Positions 742-62,482 of a stretch of DNA of 64,000 nt are shown here, piece after piece. Position 1 is the first letter of the stretch. Each line of letters opens with the position of its first letter. This DNA is from Mustelus asterias (taxonomy: Eukaryota). The translations under genes and the position numbers were made by a program. The notes under the pieces are model-generated. The model saw nothing but the letters and a program-made list of their open reading frames with translations, made no database searches and was not told where the DNA came from. The DNA is taken from positions 103,726,001-103,790,000 of the forward strand of contig NC_135809.1 in assembly GCF_964213995.1 (NCBI RefSeq), given 5' to 3'.

Positions 742-948
742 GTAAGAAGTGTCACAACACCAGGTTAAAGTCTAACAGGGTTATTTGGTATCACAAGCTT
801 TCGGAGTGCTGCTCCTGAGTTCACTCACCTGATGAAGGAGCAGCACTCCGAAAGCTCATGATACCATATAAACCTGTTGGACTTTAACCTGGTGTTGTGA
901 GACTTCTTACTGTGCCCATCACAGTCCAACACCGGCATCTCCACATCA
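742..948 (+). mobile_element. Short fold-back Penelope-like element (pLTR-derived) with hammerhead core
   Basis: Inverted arms 741-816 / 836-911, a unique 3' tail ending ctccacatc, and flanking 12-bp direct repeat ttctgaaaccaa (730-741, 949-960). Same family recurs at 36745 and 56067/56228. Confidence 0.85.
825..861 (+). ncRNA. Minimal type I hammerhead ribozyme motif (stem I carries one mismatch)
   Basis: tcac-CTGATGA-a-ggag(cagca)ctcc-GAAA-gc-T-C-atga: conserved CUGAUGA/GAAA/UH core with stem II. Stem I tcac/atga probably decayed from tcac/gtga. Confidence 0.7.
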
Positions 949-12231: not shown

Positions 12232-15200
12232 TGACTTTGGGATGAGGGAGGAGTTGGCTAAGGTAGACTGGGAGCAAAGATTTTATGGTAGGACAATTGA
12301 GGAACAGTGGAGGACTTTGAAAGCGATTTTTTCACACTGCTCAGCAAAAGTATATGCCAGTGAAAAGGAAGGACTGTAGGAAAAGGGATAATCAGCCATG
12401 GATATCTAAGGAAATAAAGGAGAGCATTACATTGAAAGAAAATGCATACAAAGTGGCAAAGATTAGTGGGAAACTAGAGGATTGAGAAATCTTTAAAGGT
12501 CAACAAAAAGCCACAGAAAAAGCTATAAAGAAAAGTAAGATAGATAATGAGAGTAAACGAGCTCAGAATATATGAAGATATAGCAAAAGTTTCTACAAAT
12601 ATATAAAAGAGAGTGGCTAAGGTAAATATGGTCCTTTTAGAGGATGAGAAGGGGTATTTAATAATGGGAAATGAGGAAATGGCCGAGGCATTGAACAGGT
12701 ATTTTGTGTCAGTGTTAACAATGGAAGACATAAATAACATGCCAAAAATTGATGACAAGGAGGCTATGGCAGGTGAGGAACTAGAAACAACAATTATCAC
12801 TAAAGAGATAGTATTGGGCAAGCTAATGGGGCTAAAGGTAGACAAGTCTCCTGGCCCTGATGGAATGCATCTGAGGGTATTAAAAGAGATGGTGAGGGAA
12901 ATAGCAAATGCGTTCATGGTAATTTACCAAAATTTGCTGGACTCTGCGGTGTTTCTGGCAGATTGGAAAACAGCAAATATGATGGCACTGTTTAAAAAAG
13001 GAGGTAGACAAAAGGTGGATAACTATAGGCCAGTTAGCTTAACTTCTGTAGTTGGGAAAGTGCTTGAATCTATCATCAAGGAAGAAATAGCGAGACTTTT
13101 GGATAGAAATTGTCCCATTGGGCAGACGCAGCATGGGTTCATGAAAGGCAAGTCATGTTTAACTAATTTACTGGAATTCTTTGAGGACATTACAAGCGCG
13201 ATGGACAATGGGGAACTGGTGGATGTGGTTTATCTGGATTTCCAGAAGGCATTCGATAAGGTCCTGCACAAAAGGCTGCTTCATAAGATAAAGGTGCACA
13301 GCATTACGAGTAATATACGAGCTTGGACAGAGGATTGGTTAACTAACAGAAAGCAAAGTGTGGGAATAAGTGTGGTTGGCGTTCAGTGACTAGTCGTGCG
13401 CCTCAGGGATCAGTGTTGGGACCGCAATTGTTTACAATTTTCATAGATGATTTGGAGTTGGGGACCAAGTGTAGAGTGTCAAAGTTTGCAGATGACACTA
13501 AAATGAGTGCTAGAGCAAAGTGTGCAGAGGACACTGAAAGTATGCAGAGGGATATAGACAGTTTAAGTGAGTGGGCAAGGGTCTGGCAGATGGAGTACAA
13601 TGTTGATAAGTGTGAGGTCATCTATTTTGGTAGGAATAACAGCAAAATGAACTATTATTTAAATGGTAAAAAATTGCAGCATGCTGCTGTGCAGAGGGAC
13701 CTGGGTGTCCTTATGCATGAATCACAAAAGTTGGTTTGTAGGTGCAGCAGGTAATTAAGAAGGCAAATGGAATTTTGTCATTCATTGCTAGAGGCATGGA
13801 GTTTAAAACAGGAGGTTGTGTTGCAGCTGTATAGAACATAGAAAAGCTACAGCACAAACAGGCCCTTCGGCCCACAAGTTGCGCCAAACAATTTCCTTAC
13901 CTTCTAGGCTCATCTAGAACCCTCTATCTTACTAACCTCCATGAACCTATCCAAAAGTCTCTTAAAAGACTCAATCAAATCCGCTTCCACCATCACTACC
14001 AGCAGCCGATTCCACGCACCCACCACCCTCTGAGTGAAAAACTTACCCCTAACATCTCCTCTATACCTACTCCCCAGCACCCTAAACCTGTGGCCTCTCG
14101 TGACAACCATTTCAGCCCTGGGTAAAAGCCTCTGAGAATCCACTCTATCAATACCTCTCAACATCTTATACACCTCTATCAGGTCACCTCTCATCCTTCG
14201 CCTCTCCAAGGAGAATAGACCTAGCTCTCTCAACCTATCCTCATAAGGCATACCACTTAATCCCGGCAACATCCTCGTAAATCTCCTCTGCACCCGTTCT
14301 ATGGATTCCACATCCTTTCTGTAATAAGGCGACCAGAACTGGGCACAGTACTCCAGGTGGGGTCTGACCAGGGTCCTATACAGCTGCAGCATTATCTCCC
14401 GATTTCTAAACTCAATTCCTCTATTGATGAAGGCCAGTATTCCATACGCCTTCTTAACCACAGCCTCTACCTGCGATGCCGCTTTGAGCGTCCTATGAAC
14501 CCGGACCCCAAGATCCCTCTGTTCTTCCACACTGCCAAGCGTCTTACCCTTAATATTATATTATTCCATCCTATTCGACCTGCCAAAATGAACCACCACA
14601 CACATATCTGGGTTGAAGTACATCTGCCACTTCTCCGCCCAGTCTTGCATCTTATCTATGTCTCGTTGCAACTGCTGACATCCCTCTACACTATCCACAA
14701 CATCTCCAACCTTTGTGTCATCAGCAAACTTGCCAACCCATCCTTCCACTTTCCCATCCAGGTCATTTATAAAAATCATAAAGAGCAAGGGTCCCAGAAC
14801 AGATCCCTGGGGCACCCCACTGGTGACCGACCTCCACTCTGAAAAAGACCCATCTACAACCACTCTTTGCCTTCTGTGGGCAAGCCAGTTCTGAATCCAC
14901 AAAGCAACGTCCCCTTGTATCCCATGCCCCTTCACTTTCTCCATAAGCCTTGCATGGGGCACCTTATCAAACGCCTTACTGAAATCCATATAAACCACAT
15001 CTACCACTCTTCCCCCGTCTAAGTGTCTAGTCACATCTTCAAAAAACTCAATCAGACTCGTAAGGCATGATCTGCCTCGGACAAAGCCGTGCTGGCTACT
15101 TCTGATCATACTATTCCTTTCCAAATGCTCATAAATCCTGCCTCTCAGGATCTTCTCCATCAACTTACCTACCACTGAGGTTAGACTCACCGGTCTATAA

Positions 15201-15994
15201 TTTCCTGGGCTATCTCTTCTCCCTTTCTTGAATAACGGAACCACATCCTCCATCCTCCAATCCTCCGGAACCTCTCCTGTCTCCATTGACGATGCAAAGA
15301 TCATCGCCAGAGGATCAGCAATCTCTTCCCTCGCCTCCCACAGTAACCTGGGGTACATCCCATCCGGTCCCGGCGATTTATCTAAGGTGCTGTTGAGGTG
15401 TTGTACAAGGTGCTGTTAAGGCCACACCTGGAGTACTGTGTACAGCTTTGGTCTCCTTACTTGATAAAGGATATACTGGTACTGGAGGGGGTGTAGAGGA
15501 GATTCACTAGGTTAATTCCGGAGTTGAGAGGATTGGCTTATGAGGAGGGACTGATTAGGAATAGACTGGGGCTATAGTCATTGGAATTTAGAAGAATGAG
15601 GGGGGATCTTACAGAAACATACAAAATTATGAAGGGAATAGATAAGATAGAAGCCGGGAGGTTGTTTCCACTGGCAGATGAAACTAAAACTAGGGGGCAT
15701 AGCCTCAAAATAAGGGGGAGCAGATTTAGGACTGAGTTCAGGAGGAACTTCTTCACCCAAAGGGTTGTGAAGCTGTAGAATTCCCTGTCCAGTGAGGCAG
15801 TTGAGGCTACCTCGTTGAATGTTTTTAAGGCAAAAATAGATAGATTTTTGAACTGTAAAGGAATTAAGGGTTATGGGTGAGCGGGCAGGTAAGTGGAGCT
15901 GAGTCCACGAAAAGATCACTCATGATCTTATTGAATGACAGAGCAGGCTCGAGAGGCCAGATGGCCTACTCCTGCTCCTAGTTCTTATGTTCTT
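12232..15994 (+). mobile_element. 5'-truncated CR1 LINE (outer element, split by an inverted CR1)
   Basis: ORFs 12613-13389, 13386-13754 and 15581-15778 with KSPGPDG, NYRPVSLTS, QHGFMKGKSCLTN, LDFQKAFDKV, PQGSVLGP and FADD; ends in (ttcttatg)n tail at about 15980-15994. Confidence 0.95.
13831..15383 (-). mobile_element. Young 5'-truncated CR1 LINE nested in the outer CR1
   Basis: ORFs 14561-15358 and 13910-14530 are in frame and separated by one stop; FADD motif present; (ttctatg) tail at 13831-13843. Confidence 0.95.
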
Positions 15995-29599: not shown

Positions 29600-29935
29600 T
29601 GCAGGGTTTTGACTTGCGCTCTGGCTGCGCTCCAGGCCGGCCGGCCGGCAGCTTTGCTGAGCCTCGGAGCGCGCCGTAGCGGCAGCGGTTCCATGGTGAA
29701 AGTTTTCTCCGAAGTGTCCCGGGGGCAGCGAGTGAGCAGAAGGGAGAGCTCCCTCCCATCCGCGGCTCACAGAGATCCAGCACCGACACAGTGTGAGTAC
29801 CCGGTACCGGCGGCCGCCCGCTGCCAGCCCGCGGCGGCTCCAGCTGCTGTTTGCGGCCAACCGTCTCCCAGCCGTTACGGCGCGAGCTCGGTTACCGTGG
29901 CAGCGGCAGGTGGGCTCGGGGAGGGAGAGGGAGCG
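29600..29935 (+). promoter_or_regulatory. CpG island / probable promoter and first exon of an unidentified host gene
   Basis: The only dense CpG cluster in a CpG-depleted window (ggccggccggccgg, gcgcgcc, gcggccgc); strong donor GTGAGT at 29793-29798. Confidence 0.75.
29693..29792 (+). CDS. Candidate first coding segment or uORF (MVKVFSEVSRGQRVSRRESSLPSAAHRDPAPTQ, phase 1)
   Basis: ATG at 29693 (ttccATGG) is open to the GTGAGT donor. I do not recognise the peptide, so this may be 5' UTR. Confidence 0.3.
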
Positions 29936-31445
29936 CTGGGCAGGGGGAGGGGGGTGATGGGCAGGATGAGGGGGGGGGGGGGTGATGGGCAGGGTGAGGG
30001 GGGAGGGGGGTGATGGGCAGGGTGAGGGGGGAGGGGGGTGATGGGCAGGATGAGGGGGGGGGTGATGGGCAGGATGGGGGGGGGGGTGATGGGCAGGATG
30101 GGGGGGGGGTGATGGGCAGGATGGGGGGGGGTGATGGGCAGGATGGGGGGGGTGATGGGCAGGATGGGGGGGGTGATGGGCAGGATGGGGGGGGGTGATG
30201 GGCAGGATGGGGGGGGTGATGGGCAGGATGGGGGGGGTGATGGGCAGGATGAGGGGGGGTGATGGGCAGGATGAGGGGGGGTGATGGGCAGGATGAGGGG
30301 GGGTGATGGGCAGGATGGGGGAGGGTGATGGGCAGGATGGGGGGGGGTGATGGGCAGGGTGAGGGGGTGATGGGCAGGGTGAGGGGGTGATGGGCAGGGT
30401 GAGGGGGTGATGGGCAGGGTGAGGGGGGTGATGGGCAGGGTGAGGGGGGTTGATGGGCAGGGTGAGGGGGGGTGTTATGGGCAGGGTGAGGGGGGGTTGA
30501 TGGGCAGGGTGAGGGGAGGTTGATGGGCAGGGTGAGGGGGGGGTTGATGGGCAGGGTGAGGGGGGGGTTGATGGGCAGGGTGAGGGGGGGGTTGATGGGC
30601 AGGGTGAGGGGGGGGTTGATGGGCAGGGTGAGGGGGGGGTTGATGGGCAGGGTGAGGGGGGGTTGATGGGCAGGGTGGGGGGGGGTTGATGGGCAGGGTG
30701 GGGGGGGGGTTGATGGGCAGGGTGCGGGGAGTTGATGGGCAGGGTGGGGGGGGTTGATGGGCAGGGTGAGGGCGGGGTTGATGGGCAGGGTGGGGGGGGT
30801 TGATGGGCAGGGTGAGGGGGGTGCTGGGCAGGGTGAGGGGGGTGCTGGGCAGGGTGAGGGGGGTGCTGGGCAGGGTGGGGGGGTGCTGGGCAGGGTGTGG
30901 TGGGGGCTGCTGGACAGGGTGAGGGGGGGGTTGCTGGTCAGGGTGAGGGGGTGGTAATGGGCAAGGTGAGGGGGTGGGGGGTGATGGGCAAGGTGAGGGG
31001 ACGATGGGCAAGGTGAGGGGACGATGGGCAAGGTGAGGGGGTTGGGGTGTGATGGGCAAGGTGAGTGGGTTGGGGTGTGATGGGCAAGGTGAGGGGGTGG
31101 GTGTGATGGGCAAGGTGAGGGGGTGGGTGTGATGGGCAAGGTGAGGGGGGTGGGGTGTGATGGGCAAGGTGAGGGGGGTGGGGTGTGATGGGCAAGGTGA
31201 GGGGGGTGGGGTGTGATGGGCAAGGTGAGGGGGTGGGTGTGATGGGCAAGGTGAGGGGGTGGGTGTGATGGGCAAGGTGAGGGGGTGGGTGTGATGGGCA
31301 AGGTGAGGGGGGTGGGGTGTGATGGGCAAGGTGAGGGGGGCGGGGTGTGATGGGCAAGGTGAGGGGGGCGGGTGGGCTGTTGGGCAGGGTGAGGGTGGTG
31401 GGTTGATGGGCATGGGGGAGGTGATGGGTGGGGTGATGGGCAAGG
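29935..31445 (+). repeat. G-rich minisatellite, about 18-28 bp units (gatgggcagggtgagGn and variants)
   Basis: Dozens of tandem units with graded variants: gggcaggatg, then gggcagggtg, then gctgggcag, then gggcaaggtgag..gtgt. Confidence 0.97.
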
Positions 31446-31725
31446 TGAGTGTCGTGGTGGAGGGGATGGGAAGTGGGGGAGGGCAGGGGGGTGGAGTTGG
31501 GGGAGAGCAGGGTAGTGAGGGGTTGTGGGAGGGCAGGGGGGTCGAGTTGGGGGACAGCAGGGTAGTGAGGGGTTGGGGCAGGGCAGGGTGAGGGTGGGGT
31601 GGATGGGAAGGTAGATAGGGGATGGGCAAAGGTTTAGGAGATTAGGAGCAAGTGGGTGGGGTGTGTGTGCGGAGGGAAGTTGAGTGTGGAGGGGGCGATT
31701 GTTTGTGGGCAGTTGGGAAAGTGGG

Positions 31726-33254
31726 TCACAAAGTCATACAGCACATAAACAGGCCCTTTGCCTCATCATTTATGCTGACCATCAAATACCAATCTCTACT
31801 AATTCCATTTACCAGCATTTGGATCATAGCTACTATGCTGTGGCAAATTAAGTGCTCGTTCAGATGCTTCTGAAATATTGCGAAAGTACCTGCCTCCAGC
31901 ACCCTCGGGCAATGCGTTCCATATTTCTAACATCCTCTTGGTGAAAAATATTTTTCCTCAGGTCCCCTCTCGACCACTTATTCCTCACTTTAAACTTTAG
32001 TCCTCTGGCCTTAGACACCTCGGGCATGGGGAAAGGATTTTTATGATCTACCCTATCTATGGCTTTCATTTTGTATCTACTTCTATCGGATCCCCCCTCA
32101 GCCTCCACTGCTCCAGGGAAAGCCAACCCAGCCTATCCAGTGTCTCCTCGTAGCTGAAACTTTCCATCCCAGGCAACATTCTGGTGAATTTCCTCTGCGC
32201 CCTCTTCAGTGCAATCACAACTTTCCAATAGTGTCGTGACCAGAACTGCACACACTATTCCATCTGTGGCCTAACCAATGTCTAATCAATGTTTTTTAAA
32301 GTTGTAACAAGACCTCCCTGCGTCTATATTCTATGTCCCGACTAATGAAGGCAAGCATTCTGTATGCCTTCTTCACCAACCTATCTACTTGTGCTGCCAC
32401 GGGCGGCACGGTAGCACAGTGGTTAGCACTGCTGCTTCACAGCTCCAGGGTCCAGGGTTCGATTCCCGGCTCGGGTCACTGTCTGTGTGGAGTTTGCACA
32501 TTCTCCTCGTGTCTGCGTGGGTTTCCTCCGGGTGCTCCGGTTTCCTCCCACAGTCCAAAGATGTGCGGGTTAGGTTGATTGGCTAGGTTAAAAAAATTGC
32601 CCCTTAGAGTCCTGGGATGCGTAGGTTAGAGGGATTAGCGGGTAAAATATGTGGGGGTAGGGCCTGGGTGGGATTGTGGTTGGTGCAGACTCGATGGGCC
32701 GAATGGCCTCCTTCTGCACTGTAGGGTTTCTATGATTCTATGATGATTCTATGCCACCTGTGGGGATCTGTGGATTTGTATACTAAGGTCCCTTTGCTTC
32801 TCAATACTCTCTAGGATCCTATCATTTACAGTGTATCTTTGACCCTTATCTGAACCTCCCAAAATGCATCACCTCACACTTATCAGGATTAAATTCCATC
32901 TGCCATTGCTCTGTCCATCTTACCAGCTGATCAATATCAATCTGCACTCTCAGACTACTCTCCTTACTATCAACAACAGCACCAATTTTTGTGTTATCTG
33001 CAAACTTATTAATTATACCTTCTACATTCCCATCCAAGTCATTAATGTATATAACAAACAGCAAGGGTCCCAGCAACAATCCTATGGTACTCCGCTGGTC
33101 ATAGGCTTCCAATCACAAAAGCATCCCTCCACCATCACTCTTTGCCTCCTACTAACAAGCCACTTTTGGATCCATTTTGCCAACTTGCCTTGGATCCCAT
33201 GGGCTCCAACCTTTTGAACCAGCTTTCCATTTGGGACCTTGCCAAAGACCTTAC
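31726..33254 (-). mobile_element. 5'-truncated CR1 LINE
   Basis: ORFs with LLGPLLFVIYINDLD..KFADNTK, QFWS and RLGWLSLEQWRLRGD; split by an HE1 SINE. Confidence 0.92.
32401..32751 (+). mobile_element. Full-length HE1 SINE (tRNA-derived V-SINE with CR1 tail)
   Basis: gggcggcacggtagcacagtgg head, GGTTCGATTCC B box, V-core tgtgtggagtttgcac...tttcctcccacagtccaaaga, (ttctatga)n tail, TSD tgccac (32395-32400, 32752-32757). Confidence 0.95.
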
Positions 33255-36238: not shown

Positions 36239-36744
36239 CACTGCCCCTGCATTAATTCATCTGCTGTTTTGAAACCCTCATCCATACGTTTGTTATCTCT
36301 AGATGACTATTTGAGTACACTTCAGATTGGTCTCCCATGTTCTATCCTCTGTCAACCTGAAGTCATTATTAAACTCGATTGGCCATGTCTTTACTCCAAG
36401 CCAAGTTCCATTCCTCTATTAGCCCTGTTCTTGCTGAGCAATATTATCTCCTGGTCAAGCAATGCCTTGATTTAAAATTCCCATCCTGGCCTCATACCTC
36501 ACTATCTCTAATTGCCTCCAACCCCACAACCTTCTGAGATATCTGCACTCATTTAGTTCTGGCCTCTTGAGCATCTCTGATTTTACTTGCTTCTCCTATT
36601 GGTAATCGTGCTCTTAGCTTCATAGCCCCTAAGCTGTAGAAATTCCTCCTCAAACCTCTCCATCTCACTACCTCTTTTTCCTCTAAGACACTTTAAAACC
36701 TATTTCTTTATCCAAGCATTGAGCCATCTGCCCTGATATCACCT

Positions 36745-37003
36745 TAAGAGTTTTAACAACACCAGGTTAAAGTCCAACAGGTTTATTTGGTAGCAAATGC
36801 CATTAGCTTTCGGAGCGCTGCTCCTTCGTCTGATGGAGTGGAAGTCATTTCCACTCGATGCTTTCCACTCCATCTGATGAAGGAGCAGCGCTCCGAAAGC
36901 TAATGGCATTTGCTACCAAATAAACCTGTTGGACTTTAACCTGGTGTTGTTAAAACTCTTACTGTGTTTACCCCAGTCCAACGCTGGCATCTCCACATCA
37001 TGA
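36745..37003 (+). mobile_element. Fold-back Penelope-like short element with hammerhead cores
   Basis: About 100-bp near-perfect inverted arms (36745-36843 / 36863-36961), unique tail ending ctccacatc, 12-bp TSD ctgatatcacct (36733-36744, 37004-37015). Confidence 0.9.
36870..36906 (+). ncRNA. Minimal type I hammerhead ribozyme, intact core
   Basis: ccat-CTGATGA-a-ggagc(agc)gctcc-GAAA-gc-T-A-atgg: stem I ccat/atgg, stem II ggagc/gctcc, predicted cleavage after A36902. Confidence 0.8.
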
Positions 37004-37619
37004 CTGATATCACCTAACATGGCTTGATGCCCATTTTGCTTCATAACACTTCTGTGAACCTCCTTGGGACAAGTTATTGCAATAACATATAAACTGTGGT
37101 GAAGGGGAGCTTCATTCAGTCAAAGCTCAATTCTGAGTAATTGTAAATAGCTGATTCAAAATCTCAATGTGCCTGGGGTTATGCCTTTTCTGCTGCCAAA
37201 CTGGTCAATGTTAGCTTATCCAACTTGGTACTTTCTGTTAGCTTACAGAGCAATGTGGAAATTCACTTATGCTCCTTGGTAGTGTAGCAGTAAAGGAAAA
37301 AGAGCTTCAGACAGTTATTGAAAAGGACTTTGAAGTGAGAACGAAATGTTGTCATGCGCTGTTCAGATATGAAATATGGGCTTTTGACTGGTATTCCAAT
37401 ATCCAGTGACTAACATTCCCGGCTGGTGAGCATTTGCTCATTGTCAGTGATTAATCTTGATATATAAAATCAGTTATTGCCTCAATTGTTCTCAAGATGA
37501 TCCTGTCCTGAACAATTAGTTACTCGGGGATAATGGACCTTACATAGACATAGCACCAGCTGGGCTATTCTCCTATGTTGCTTGGTCCTTATGTCACATA
37601 CTTTTGTTAAAATAATAAG

Positions 37620-56053: not shown

Positions 56054-56066
56054 CAGTTCTAACAAC

Positions 56067-56219
56067 GATGTGGAGATGCTGGCGTTGGACTGGGGTAAAC
56101 ACAGTAAGAAGTTTAACAACACCAGGTTAAAGTCCAACAGGTTTATTTGGTAGCAAAAGTGGCTCTTGCTACCAAATAAACCTATTGGACTTTAACCTGG
56201 TGTTGTTAAACTTCTTACC
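56067..56219 (-). mobile_element. Fold-back Penelope-like short element lacking the hammerhead
   Basis: Arms 56104-56156 / 56166-56218; tail on the left (gatgtggagatgctggcg...); 13-bp TSD cagttctaacaac (56054-56066, 56220-56232). Confidence 0.88.
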
Positions 56220-56265
56220 CAGTTCTAACAACACCAGGTTAAAGTCCAACAGGTTTATTTAATAG

Positions 56266-56300
56266 CACAAGCTTTCGGAGCATGCTCCTTCATCAGGTGA
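56266..56300 (-). ncRNA. Minimal hammerhead motif (minus strand)
   Basis: Reverse complement reads tcac-CTGATGA-a-ggagc(at)gctcc-GAAA-gc-T-T-gtg; stem I cac/gtg. Confidence 0.7.
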
Positions 56301-56333
56301 CCTGATGAAGGAGCAGCGCTCCGAAAGCTCGTG
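56300..56333 (+). ncRNA. Minimal hammerhead motif (plus strand; stem I shortened by the fold-back junction)
   Basis: ac-CTGATGA-a-ggagc(agc)gctcc-GAAA-gc-T-C-gtg. Confidence 0.65.
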
Positions 56334-57321
56334 CTACCAAATAAACCTGTTGGACTTTAACCTGGTGTTGTGAGACTTCTTACTGTGCCTACCTCAGTCC
56401 AATGCCGGCTTCTCCACATCAGTTCTATCAAGGCTTTCCAACTATTTTTGGGAGTGTGTCTTCAGTATATAGAGCTTTATGACTTGCATTTGGAGCAAAC
56501 AAATTGCCCTGTATTTATGAATTTCTTATTCTCAATTAAAGAAATGTTATCTACTTCAACCCAACCCTATTGTCTCTACATACTTTGTTTAGGAGGCCAA
56601 AAACAGAAAATGTGCAAATTAGCCCTAACAAAGCTAATTGAGTGGTTGATCTTTTATGTGACTTTGTTTACCATGAAGATGAATAGGATTAGAAAGTTAA
56701 ATACTGGGTTTGCCTGAGAGTTTTTAAAAAGGCAGCTGTACTGTATTACAATAACAACTTTGTTAATGCTGATGTCTCCAATCTAGTGCATTAATAGTAC
56801 CATATTTTCTGTAACACTATAGATTTATAAAGCTGCACAGAAAGCTGTGAACTATAAAACGCTTGAATATTGTGATATATATCGGTAATACAATACTATT
56901 ATTTAAAATAAAGGATTTAGGTTTCTATTTTCAAGAAGGAATTAGATATAGCTCTTGAGGCTAAAGGGATCAAGGGATATTGGGGAAGGCAGGATCAGGC
57001 TATTGAATTTGACAATCAGCCATGATAATGAAAGGCGGCGTAGGCTCGAAGGCCCAAATAGCTTACTCCTGCTTCTATTTTCTGTTTTTATTCTTCCTAG
57101 TTAGAAAACCTAGTTAGAACAAGTTAGTAAATGGCCAGGTCATTCAAAGAAAAATGGAGAAAGAAAATGTCTCTCCAAAGGATAATATTTAACTTTAAGA
57201 CTAGAACTCAATATGAATTACTTATCAAATTGTCAACGTCTGTTGTCTGTGTAAGAAAGCTGCCTAAGTCCCACAGGACCATAGGCTGTTCTCTCCCTTT
57301 TCAGAGAGAGAGCTGACTGGT

Positions 57322-60206
57322 AAGACCATAAGACATAGGAGCAGCATGAAGCCACTCGGCCCATCGAGTCTGCTCCACCATTCAATCATGGCTGATATTT
57401 TTCTCATCCCCATTCTCCTGCCCTTTTCCCATACCCCTGATCCCCTTATTAATCAAGAACCTATCTATCTCTGTCTTAAAAACACTCAATGACCTGGCCT
57501 CCACAGCCTTCTGCGGCAAAGAGTTCTACAGATTCACCACTCTGGCTGAAGAAATGCCTTCTCATCTCTGTTTTAAAGGATCGCCCCTTTAGCCTGAGGT
57601 TATGCCCTCTGGTTCTAGTTTTCCCTACTAGTGGAAACATCCTCTCCATGTGCACTCTATCCAGGCCTCGCAGTATCCTGTACGTTTCAATAAGATCCCC
57701 CCTCATCCTTCTAAAGTCCAATGAGTACAGACCCAGAGTCCTCAACCGTACCTCATAGGATAAGCTCTTCATTCCAGGGATCATTCTTGTGAACCTCCTG
57801 TGGACCCTTTCCAAGGCCAGCATATCCTTCCTTAGATATGGGGCTCAAAACTGTGCACAGTACTCCAAATGGGGTCTGACTAGAGCCTTATACAGCCTCA
57901 GAAGTTCATCCCTGCTCTTGTATTCTAGCCCTCTCGACATGAATGCTAACGTTGCATTTGCCTTCCTAACTGCCGACTGAATGGGTAACTATAGGCCGGT
58001 TAGCTTAACTTCTGTAGTAGGGAAAATGCTTGAATCTATCTTCAAGGAAGAAATAGCGAGACATCTGGACATAAATTGTCCCATTGGTAAGATGCAGCAT
58101 GGGTTTATGAAGGACAGGTCATGTTTGACTAATTTGGTGGAATTCTTTGAGAACATCACATGCGCAGTGGACAGTGGGGAACCTGTGGATGTGGTGTACC
58201 TGGATTTCCAGAAGGCCTTTGACAAGGTGCCGCACCAAAGACCGCTGCTTAAGATAAAGGTGCACGGTGTCACGGATAATGTATTAGCATGGATAGAGGA
58301 TTGGTTAACTAACAGGAAACAAAGAGTGGAGGTAAATGGGTGTTTTTCTGGTTGGCAATTAGTGACTAGTGGTGTGCCTCAGGGATCAGTGTTGGGACCG
58401 CAATTGTTTACGATTTACATAGATGATTTGGAGTTGGGGACCAAGTGTAGTGTGTCAAAATTCGCAGATGACACTAAGATGAGTGGCAGAGCAAAGTGTG
58501 CAGAGGATGCTGAAAGTCTGCAAAGGGATATAGATAGTCCAACTGAATGGGCGAGGGTCTGGCAGATGGAGTACAATGTTGGTAAATGTGAGGTTATCCA
58601 TTTTGGTAGGAACAACAGCAAAATGGACTAATATTTAAATGGTAAAAAATTGCAGCATGCTGCTGTGCAGAGGGATCTGGGTGTCCTTGTGCAAGAATCT
58701 CAAGGAGTTGGTTTGGAGGTGCAGCAGGTAATTAAGAAGGCAAATGGAATTTTGTCCTTCATTGCTAGAGGGATGGAGTTTAAAAACAGGGAGATTATGG
58801 TGCTGGTGAGGCCATACCTGGAGTACTGTGTGCAGTTTTGGTCTTCTTACTTGAGAAAGGATATACTGGCACTGGAGGGGCTGCAGAGGAGATTCACTAG
58901 GTTGATTCCAGAGTTGAGAGGGTTGGCTTATGAGGAGGGACTGAGTAGACTCGGGCTATACTCATTGGAATTCAGAAGAATGAGGGGGGATCTTATAGAA
59001 ACATATAACATTCTGAAGGGAATAGATAAGATGGAAGCAGGGAAGTTGTTTCCACTGGCGGGTGAAAATAGAACGAGAGGCATGCCCTCAAAATAAGGGG
59101 GAGCAGATTTAGGACTGAGTTGAGGAGGAACTTCTTCACACAAAGGTTTGTGAATCTGTGGAATTCCCTGCCCAGTGAAGCAGTTGAGGCTACCTCATTG
59201 AATGTTTTTAAGGCAAGGATAGATACATTTTTGAACAGTAAAGGAATTAAGGGTTATGGTGAGCAGGCGGGTAAGCGGAGCTGAGTCCACGAAAAGATCA
59301 GCCATGATCTTATTGAATGGCCGAGCAGGCTTGAGAGGCCAGATGGCCCACTTCTGCTCCTAGTTCTTATATTCTTATGAACCTGCACGTTAACCTTAAG
59401 AGAATCTTGAACAATAATTCCCAAGTCCCTTTGTGTTTCTGATTTCCTAAGCATTTTTCCATTTAGAAAATAATCTATGCCTCCATTCCTCCTTCCAAAG
59501 TGCATAACCTCACACTTTTCCACATTGTATTCCATCTGCCACTTCTTTGCCCACTCTCCTGACCTGTCCAAATCCTCCTGCAGCCCCCCTGCTTCCTCAA
59601 TACTACCCCTCCCTCTACATATCTTTGTATCATCTGCAAACTTAGCTACAGTGCCTGCAGTTCCTTCCTCCAAATCGTTAATGTATGTTGTGAATAGTTG
59701 TGGTCCCAGCACTGACACCTGAGGCACACCACTAGTCACTGGCTGCCATGCTGAGAAAGACCCCTTTATCCCCACTCTCTGCCTTCTGCCAGTCAGCCAA
59801 CCCTCTATCCATGCCAGGATCTTACCCTTAACACCATGGGCTCTTAACTTATTTAACAGTCTCCTATGCGGCACCTTGTCAAAGGCCTTCTGGAAATCTA
59901 AATAAATCATGTCCACGAGTTCTCCTTTATCTAACTTCCTTGTTACCTCCTCAAAGAACTCTAACAGATTTGTCAGACATGACCTCCCCTTGCCAAAGCC
60001 GTGCTGACTCAGTCCTACTTCATCATCCAAGTTATCTGTGATCTATAATAATGGATTCTAAAATCTTGCCAATGATCAAAGTCAGGCTAACTGGCCTAAA
60101 ATTTCCCATCTGCTGCCTCCCTCCCTTCTTAAACAGCGATGTTACATACGCTACTTTCCAGTCCTCTGGTACCCTCCCTGCCTCCAGTGATTCCTGAAAG
60201 ATCACC
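57322..60206 (-). mobile_element. CR1 LINE inserted in the SINE and itself split
   Basis: ORFs 59254-60030 and 57476-57823 with RT and C-terminal motifs; TSD actggt (57316-57321, 60207-60212). Confidence 0.95.
57982..59377 (+). mobile_element. Innermost CR1 LINE (same subfamily as 12232-15994)
   Basis: ORFs 57981-58631 and 58650-59096 (NYRPVSLTS, PQGSVLGP, FADD); TSD tgaa (57978-57981, 59378-59381). Confidence 0.95.
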
Positions 60207-62002: not shown

Positions 62003-62482
62003 GGGGAGGCAGTGGCGTAGTGGTATTGTCACTGGACCACTAATCCAAAGACCCAAGGTATTGCTCTGGGGACCTATGTTCGAATCCCGTCACGGCTGGT
62101 GCTGAAATTTGAATTCAGTAAAAGTCTACTGATGACCATGAAACCATTGCTGATTGTCGTAAAAACCCATCTGGTTCACTAATGTCCTTTAGGGAAGGAA
62201 ATCTGCCATCCTTCCCTGGTCTGGCCTACATGTGACTCCAGATCCACAGCAATGTGGTTGTCTCTTAAATGCCCTCAGGGATGGGCAATAAATGCTGGCC
62301 CAGCCAGTGATGTGTGCATCCCATACAAAGAATGAAGAAAAGTACAGCACAGAAACTGGCCCTTCGGCCCCCCCCAAGCCTGTGCCAATCATGATGCCCT
62401 AACTAACGTAAAAAACAAACTTCTGCCCTTACTCGGTCATATCTCTCTATTCCCTCTCTATTCATGTACCCATCCATGAATG
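62003..62482 (+). mobile_element. tRNA-derived SINE with a CR1 tail fragment (about 62325-62471) inserted in its 3' end
   Basis: A box TGGCGTAGTGG, B box GTTCGAATCC, tail gggatgggcaataaatgctggcccagcc...cccat, resuming ccatgaatga after the insert. Confidence 0.88.

Follow-up and report, generated by a model that had tools for sequence, protein, structure and literature searches.

The palindromic elements that we describe from the shark Mustelus asterias are quite probably non-coding end-pieces of Penelope-like elements (PLEs), in which the hammerhead was selected in source elements and inserted copies decay neutrally. We analysed a 64-kb stretch of one M. asterias contig (the window), and positions below are window positions. 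The elements' family is abundant in runs from four organisms, and its minimal hammerhead, its tail on one arm only and its 12-bp target duplications amount to a PLE-type anatomy; an inverted truncated copy and a 30-40 bp tail are described as typical of PLEs in PMC8557442. Because no PLE reading frame could be linked to the elements (20 of the 92 long frames were scanned, giving five RT matches, none of them adjacent, and no GIY-YIG), the PLE origin is argued from non-coding anatomy. Master elements have likely been under selection in the past, since G accounts for less than 2% at the cleavage-site position H17 in each of the four runs and is avoided in unrelated AGCU-type motifs, and such selection can have acted only on source elements.

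Palindromic elements and their hammerhead motif

All four palindromic elements in the window are flanked by 12-bp target duplications, have arms arranged head-to-head, and carry a tail on one arm only (42, 38, 52 and 37 nt), the tailless arm starting at variable places (Table 1). The E2 palindrome, whose centre is 36800-36906, has 109-nt arms that are 94% complementary, and its plus arm reads in full CCAT CUGAUGA A GGAGC AGC GCUCC GAAA GCU A AUGG; the stems of the minus arm are identical, around a CAGACGA core. In the spacer of E2 (36849-36862) a short piece of upstream sequence (TTCCACTC) occurs once more, possibly as a template-switch scar. E4 adjoins E3, and three copies of one 12-bp target site are common to both (56054-56431). 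This shared site resembles the element's own arm sequence, and the pair suggests insertion into or beside a self-like site.

Table 1. Window positions of the palindromic elements, their arms and their hammerhead parts
Feature	Position	Strand	Remarks
E2 (subfamily A)	36745-37003		palindrome, both arms with hammerhead
E2 left target-site duplication	36733..36744	+	12-mer identical to 37004; no third copy in window
E2 right target-site duplication	37004..37015	+	12 bp
E2 inverted arm, tailless	36745..36848	-	hammerhead with U4>A
E2 minus-arm core CAGACGA	36832-36826	-	H17=A at 36804
E2 minus-arm stem I CCAT/ATGG	36836-36833 with 36803-36800	-	
E2 forward arm	36858..37003	+	intact minimal hammerhead and tail
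E2 stem I 5' strand CCAT (subfamily A)	36870..36873	+	36873 is position 2.1
E2 core CUGAUGA and unpaired A	36874..36881	+	CTGATGA 36874-36880; A 36881 between A9 and G10.1
E2 stem II GGAGC/GCUCC	36882..36894	+	3-nt loop (AGC); G10.1-C11.1 closing pair
E2 GAAA, palindromic AGCU and H17	36895..36902	+	GAAA 36895-36898; AGCU 36898-36901; H17=A 36902
E2 stem I 3' strand AUGG	36903..36906	+	36903 is position 1.1
E2 tail	36962..37003	+	42 nt; forward arm only
E1 (subfamily B type)	742..948	+	duplications 730-741 and 949-960
E1 plus arm	core 829-835		TCAC/ATGA, H17=C
E1 minus arm	791-816		without CUGAUGA; H17=U
E3 (subfamily B)	56232..56419	+	duplications 56220-56231 and 56420-56431 (1 mismatch)
E3 plus arm	core 56302-56308		AC/GT, H17=C
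E3 minus arm	core 56296-56290		TCAC/GTGC, H17=U
E4, same family, without hammerhead core	56066..56219	-	target duplication 56054-56065 and 56220-56231

The original prediction was right to identify a hammerhead fold. A minimal type I hammerhead with the full core (C3 U4 G5 A6 N7 G8 A9, G12 A13 A14 A15.1, U16.1 and H17) is present in four of the six arms. The core had been called unchanged, which describes these four; the remaining two are the E2 minus arm, whose U4A change had itself been pointed out, and the E1 minus arm, where CUGAUGA is absent. G10.1-C11.1 is a G-C pair in all five aligned arms, an unpaired A follows A9 (36881), and every one of the six arms has the palindromic AGCU with no loop III. 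The closing pair 2.1-1.1 is Watson-Crick in 4/5 arms and C-A in the other (825). A motif descriptor found three matches in the window and none in any of 100 shuffles; the motif is not a product of chance. By analogy with the hammerhead consensus, the predicted cut in E2 lies between 36902 and 36903. The CAGACGA core on the opposite strand had been taken to be inactive, a verdict that we soften: CUGA mutations are described as giving low hammerhead activity (PMC9901934) and U4C as retaining enough activity in a viroid (PMC3088659), a literature search for U4A data returned nothing relevant, and the U4A arm is probably impaired.

Rfam covariance models gave no match at gathering score across the window, and no hammerhead was among the six matches at E up to 10 within 36500-37300, a miss that we attribute to the absent stem III loop. 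The miRNA, folP and intron matches obtained there were rejected as hairpin matches far below gathering score. Twelve of the 16 CUGANGA sites with a nearby GAAA lie outside these elements and fail the descriptor. Among them is a different repeat, present at 62129 (+) and 16513 (-), in which CTGATGA is followed by four bases and then GAAA; too short for stem II, this repeat was rejected as a hammerhead.

Stem I, the cleavage-site base and decay of copies

Compensatory covariation in stem I between subfamilies had been proposed, and the letters on which that proposal was built are correct: CCAT/ATGG in E2, TCAC/GTGC at 56296-56290, TCAC/ATGA at 825 and AC/GT at 56302. Copies described as decayed or shortened are indeed so, the C-A closing pair at 825 being broken and stem I at 56302 ending at the palindrome centre. 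The minus core at 56296-56290 forms three pairs, with a U-C mismatch at the fourth. What stands of the covariation is one compensatory pair, 2.1-1.1 (U-A versus C-G), and not the rest of the stem. Of the five core-bearing arms, two have U-A at this pair, two have C-G and one has C-A. Pairs 2 and 3 are free of compensatory change, 1.2 and 1.3 being invariant on the 3' strand; at the fourth pair, two arms have C-G, one has U-A and two are unpaired. Because the upstream sequences of the two subfamilies, in the window and in loose ends, align best with a one-base gap (CCACUCCAU versus CCACUC-AC), pair 4 probably changed by slippage rather than by compensatory substitution.

The sample behind this pair comprises three insertions in two subfamilies, and since the two arms of one palindrome are not independent, the covariation is one event between two subfamilies. 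Shuffles of the five core-bearing arms reached the observed number of pairs changed on both sides in 222 of 500 cases, the covariation score in 76 of 500 and the percentage paired in 88 of 500, and two changes at one pair would be complementary by chance with a probability of 0.33-0.53. The linkage of 2.1 with 1.1 is visible only in the window, because the four-run table has no rows before 36894 and is therefore silent on 2.1 and N7. R-scape applied to single copies would chiefly register neutral decay. Swapping a single stem I strand, which had been expected to cause loss, does so in an energy model in one direction (C-A); in the other, a U-G wobble keeps three pairs, so that loss is predicted in one swap direction only. 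The subfamilies do differ by a compensatory pair, but the difference is a single base pair, from which activity of the copies does not follow. Selection, which the original prediction had read from paired changes and H-only variation, is not shown by the window data.

At H17 the six arms carry A, A, C, U, C and U and never G, as had been noted; with two to three independent draws, G would be missing by chance with a probability of 0.42-0.56. A broader sample came from 161 bases placed on contigs from four organisms' runs, 4 of the 24 listed, in which 54,555, 34,402, 13,719 and 289 contigs matched. Depth in this comparison is summed contig depth, not copy number, and variant rows span 36894 to 36969 only; known variants outside that span have no row, and the rest was treated as unreported. 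Frequent G at the cleavage position is not what these runs contain: G remains under 2% in all of them, with U at 17.2, 6.9, 43.8 and 36.5% and C at 3.4, 2.1, 1.4 and 2.8%. With three H17 states seen, the chance beforehand that G would be the missing one is about one in four. Position 1.1 is G in 47, 49, 29 and 24% of depth, 1.2-1.4 have no substitution row in the four runs, and the pattern across H17, 1.1 and 1.2-1.4 suits a constrained fold in source elements.

Much of the remaining variation has the look of decay. C11.1>T reaches 8.5, 4.9, 4.3 and 3.3% in the four runs and G12>A 7.9, 3.8, 4.9 and 0.4%, the catalytic G12 and the tolerated CpG partner C11.1 decaying at similar frequencies in three of the four. 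Since G12, described as the general base of the hammerhead (PMC12192606), decays in copies, inserted copies are free to lose it. In subfamily B a CpG spans H17 and 1.1, intact in the loose-end consensus of three runs of the four; window copies read CG, UG, UG and CA at these positions, CG being the intact site and UG and CA the products of its deamination, and the CpG ratio of the window is 0.26. Both the C/U variation at H17 and the 'atga' strand are consistent with CpG deamination at one C-G step. GCTTGTG (GCUUGUG) is also a loose-end consensus in two runs, so that U may be fixed in some subfamily, and decay may not be the sole source of H17=U before G. Upstream of the core, depth falls (ratio 0.40-0.52) and tracks the A share at 1.1 (51-76%) across the four runs, a relation confounded by clipping and truncation and given no weight here.

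Unrelated motifs of the AGCU type provided an outside control. A relaxed pattern, with a fixed core and AGCU and with stem I and H17 left free, matched at least 133 loci in viral and metagenome contigs (13 viral and at least 120 metagenome) in at least 93 clusters; the loci listed have no likeness to the shark element beyond the motif, and a 23-nt family pattern had no loci in viral, metagenome and genome contigs. Among the matches listed, G occupies H17 in 1 of 20 clusters with a stem II of at least 4 bp versus 21 of 45 chance-like clusters (p=0.001), the chance-like control being G-rich at H17; against a flat 25%, p=0.024. Stem I of at least 3 bp occurs in 8/20 and 5/45 of these same listed clusters, respectively (p=0.016), 12 of the 20 stem-II clusters thus being without a 3-bp stem I. 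The 20 clusters are 22 from which two singletons were merged by eye into a 25-copy family (unmerged, the counts among listed matches are 1/22 and 9/22), and 26 listed clusters with a 3-bp stem II were left out of the comparison (G in six, stem I of at least 3 bp in two). The eight listed clusters with stem I cover all four Watson-Crick closing pairs. Within the 25-copy family (L017 and 24 loci), H17 is C in 20 copies, U in four and A in one, 1.1 shows G>A in 6/25, and closing-pair compensation is absent. Decay is a matter of copies, covariation one of families. The relaxed-pattern loci come from unrelated organisms and support the hammerhead class, not the shark family. The unrelated families in metagenome contigs, among them L017 with its 24 loci, L016 with seven, L121 and L122, have stem I versions such as CCC/GGG, GCCG/CGGC and a 7-bp stem, and are probably eukaryotic repeats.

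Folding, mechanism and competing explanations

In the folding model, stems I and II of the isolated E2 47-mer form with probabilities above 0.9 (stem I pairs 0.92-0.95), but the stem I probability drops to 0.007 once the downstream arm is included and to 0 in the whole element. Because the read-through RNA of whole E2 is predicted to fold into one long hairpin (-196.8 kcal/mol), the copies in the window are very unlikely to cleave. A double hammerhead is modelled at -20.1, versus 2 x -11.4 for two monomers and -30.1 for the best dimer, values that take no account of protein or of tertiary contacts in the core. A 12-bp intercopy duplex, which stem II with its loop (36882-36894) can form, beats the double hammerhead (-30.1 versus -20.1). 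It is extremely improbable that the E2 hammerhead itself is active and under selection, as a strong reading of the original prediction would have it. The plus arm does match the consensus fully, and on its own the 47-mer folds well; however, a 109-nt inverted arm buries the ribozyme, a monomer cannot close stem III, the sister arm has U4A and G12 decays across copies.

We favour a model in which a PLE protein encoded elsewhere would copy end-pieces into the genome. The PLE enzyme would make a 12-nt staggered cut, both DNA strands would prime reverse transcription at two RNA sites about 40 nt apart, and the two cDNAs would run toward the RNA 5' end before being joined head to head. Selection would keep the hammerhead in tandem or full-length sources, where two hammerheads may pair via AGCU and cleave slowly, probably with protein help; a dimer model of minimal hammerhead (min-HHR) cleavage is described in PMC4209133 and in PMC6765202, citing Lunse et al. 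2017. The U-A/C-G switch at 2.1-1.1 would represent one step in a master lineage, reachable via a U-G wobble, and inserted copies would decay neutrally, largely at CpG, by H17 C>U, 1.1 G>A and G12>A.

Alternatively, the motif could be vestigial, or only a protein-binding or start-region signal, the paired change being a coincidence of drifting subfamilies. We find this very doubtful, even though the shuffles were not exceeded and chance complementarity is considerable, positions 36916-36949 vary almost as little as the core in the four runs, Anolis PLE ribozyme mutants are described as inserting normally in vitro (PMC11167929), and hammerhead-less PLE clades are described as thriving (PMC8557442). 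Variation falls at H17, 1.1 and beyond stem I, not at 1.2-1.4, none of the three H17 states in the four runs is G, and the unrelated families listed show every Watson-Crick closing-pair type, all of which speaks against a vestige. It is also distinctly unlikely that the insertion mechanism, not selection, makes the compensation, with a cDNA ending in the 5' strand annealing via the stem I dyad to one ending in the 3' strand, and the 5' strand templated from the 3' strand, so that a change at 1.1 would be compensated at 2.1 in a copy that can seed a subfamily. All four opposite-strand joints among the 15 of 22 joints listed link 36864-36874 with 36909-36916, the two best supported being represented by 13 and 8 contigs in run X1, 15 and 5 in X13, 5 and 0 in X4 and none in X16, and these are the places expected of a stem I junction in the loose-end-table subfamilies. 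Yet the joints are known by position, not letters, and divergent subfamilies are generally clipped at 36874, 36911 and 36916 as well; before the 5' strand, E2 carries its normal upstream sequence rather than a reverse-complemented 3' flank, a joint at stem I together with a full core occurs in none of the four window elements, and templating leaves the conserved core and the missing G at H17 unexplained.

Junctions might instead record ribozyme action in the animal, a cDNA ending at the self-cleaved 5' end (1.1) annealing via the stem I dyad to a second cDNA that ends in the 5' strand. We regard this as unlikely. If true, it predicts an excess of junctions at the cut site, which would be evidence from the genome that RNAs serving for insertion are cut by PLE hammerheads; copies made in this way would have a re-templated stem I and show compensation without selection. 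One hint is that the arms of E4 meet within about 1 nt of the predicted cut site, the subfamily of E4 being taken from unlinked four-run frequencies; another is the stem I-like position of all four opposite-strand joints listed. On the other side, three of the four elements span the cut site, the joints are known by position, not letters, and the four runs show no place where many contigs begin or end. A literature search on junctions recording self-cleavage found no title concerning it.

Relation to known elements

Hammerheads with compensatory changes in PLE families have been known since 2014, and the closest likeness is to the min-HHRs of metazoan PLE pseudo-LTRs (Cervera and de la Pena 2014, PMC4209133). 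As described there, these share CUGANGA with an unpaired base, G10.1-C11.1, a 5-bp stem II, GAAA, a loopless palindromic 4-nt stem III and a stem I of 3-4 bp, and they too occur mostly as single truncated copies, with opposite-strand pairs and with families showing compensatory changes. A turtle min-HHR in that paper has the GAAA-GCU-U/GCAU-AUGC layout of the window elements, and the E2 core with its unpaired A fits the consensus of Fig S3. The rows examined of that figure include no shark and have AGCU more rarely than ACGU, and the window elements differ further in that no PLE reading frame is linked to them.

The Poseidon PLE of Anolis carolinensis, PAc (Frangieh et al. 2024, PMC11167929), likewise has a hammerhead upstream of its tail. 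In the account given there, both strands are cut and extended, two RT start sites flank the tail, ribozyme activity depends on protein, insertion mainly uses uncleaved RNA, and no reads ending at the ribozyme cut were found in Anolis. In the window, three of the four elements span the predicted cut site, in keeping with insertion of uncleaved RNA. PAc differs in being autonomous, with a frame that starts in stem II, whereas the core-AUG frame of E2 stops after eight codons.

MITEs, which derive from DNA transposons, are short, high-copy, near-perfect hairpins with a target duplication and fixed terminal inverted repeats. The window elements are also short, high-copy, near-perfect hairpins with target duplication, but we rejected a MITE reading because the tail (37-52 nt) is on one arm only and the other arm starts variably.

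Five RT fragments (PF00078) lie in the window in two clusters of opposite orientations, at 12607-13751 (+), 14564-15415 (-), 57981-58628 (+) and 59257-60042 (-), and are probably LINEs. A G-rich low-complexity stretch at about 29900-31700 contains long open frames, one of which was scanned without a Pfam match; GC is 0.65 and GC skew 0.75 over 30001-32000.

Our literature search on shark PLE hammerheads found none but one chondrichthyan in a 2026 preprint, whose supplements may list the family (Li, Clavereau, Pollet, bioRxiv 10.64898/2026.07.22.740005). The role of PLE ribozymes is still called unclear in PMC8557442, and a junction peak at the cut site, if found, would bear directly on it. The window family is useful material, being very abundant, with several subfamilies differing at H17 and the closing pair and with clear target duplications. 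The preprint describes animal non-LTR retrozymes as non-autonomous PLE derivatives with a type I hammerhead. Unlike these, the copies in the window are head-to-head with target duplications and form no tandem arrays there. A hint of likeness comes from single contigs that join the tail region (36946-37002) to the core start (36864-36874) via upstream-like sequence, and that are probably head-to-tail units of about 120-170 nt of the window family.
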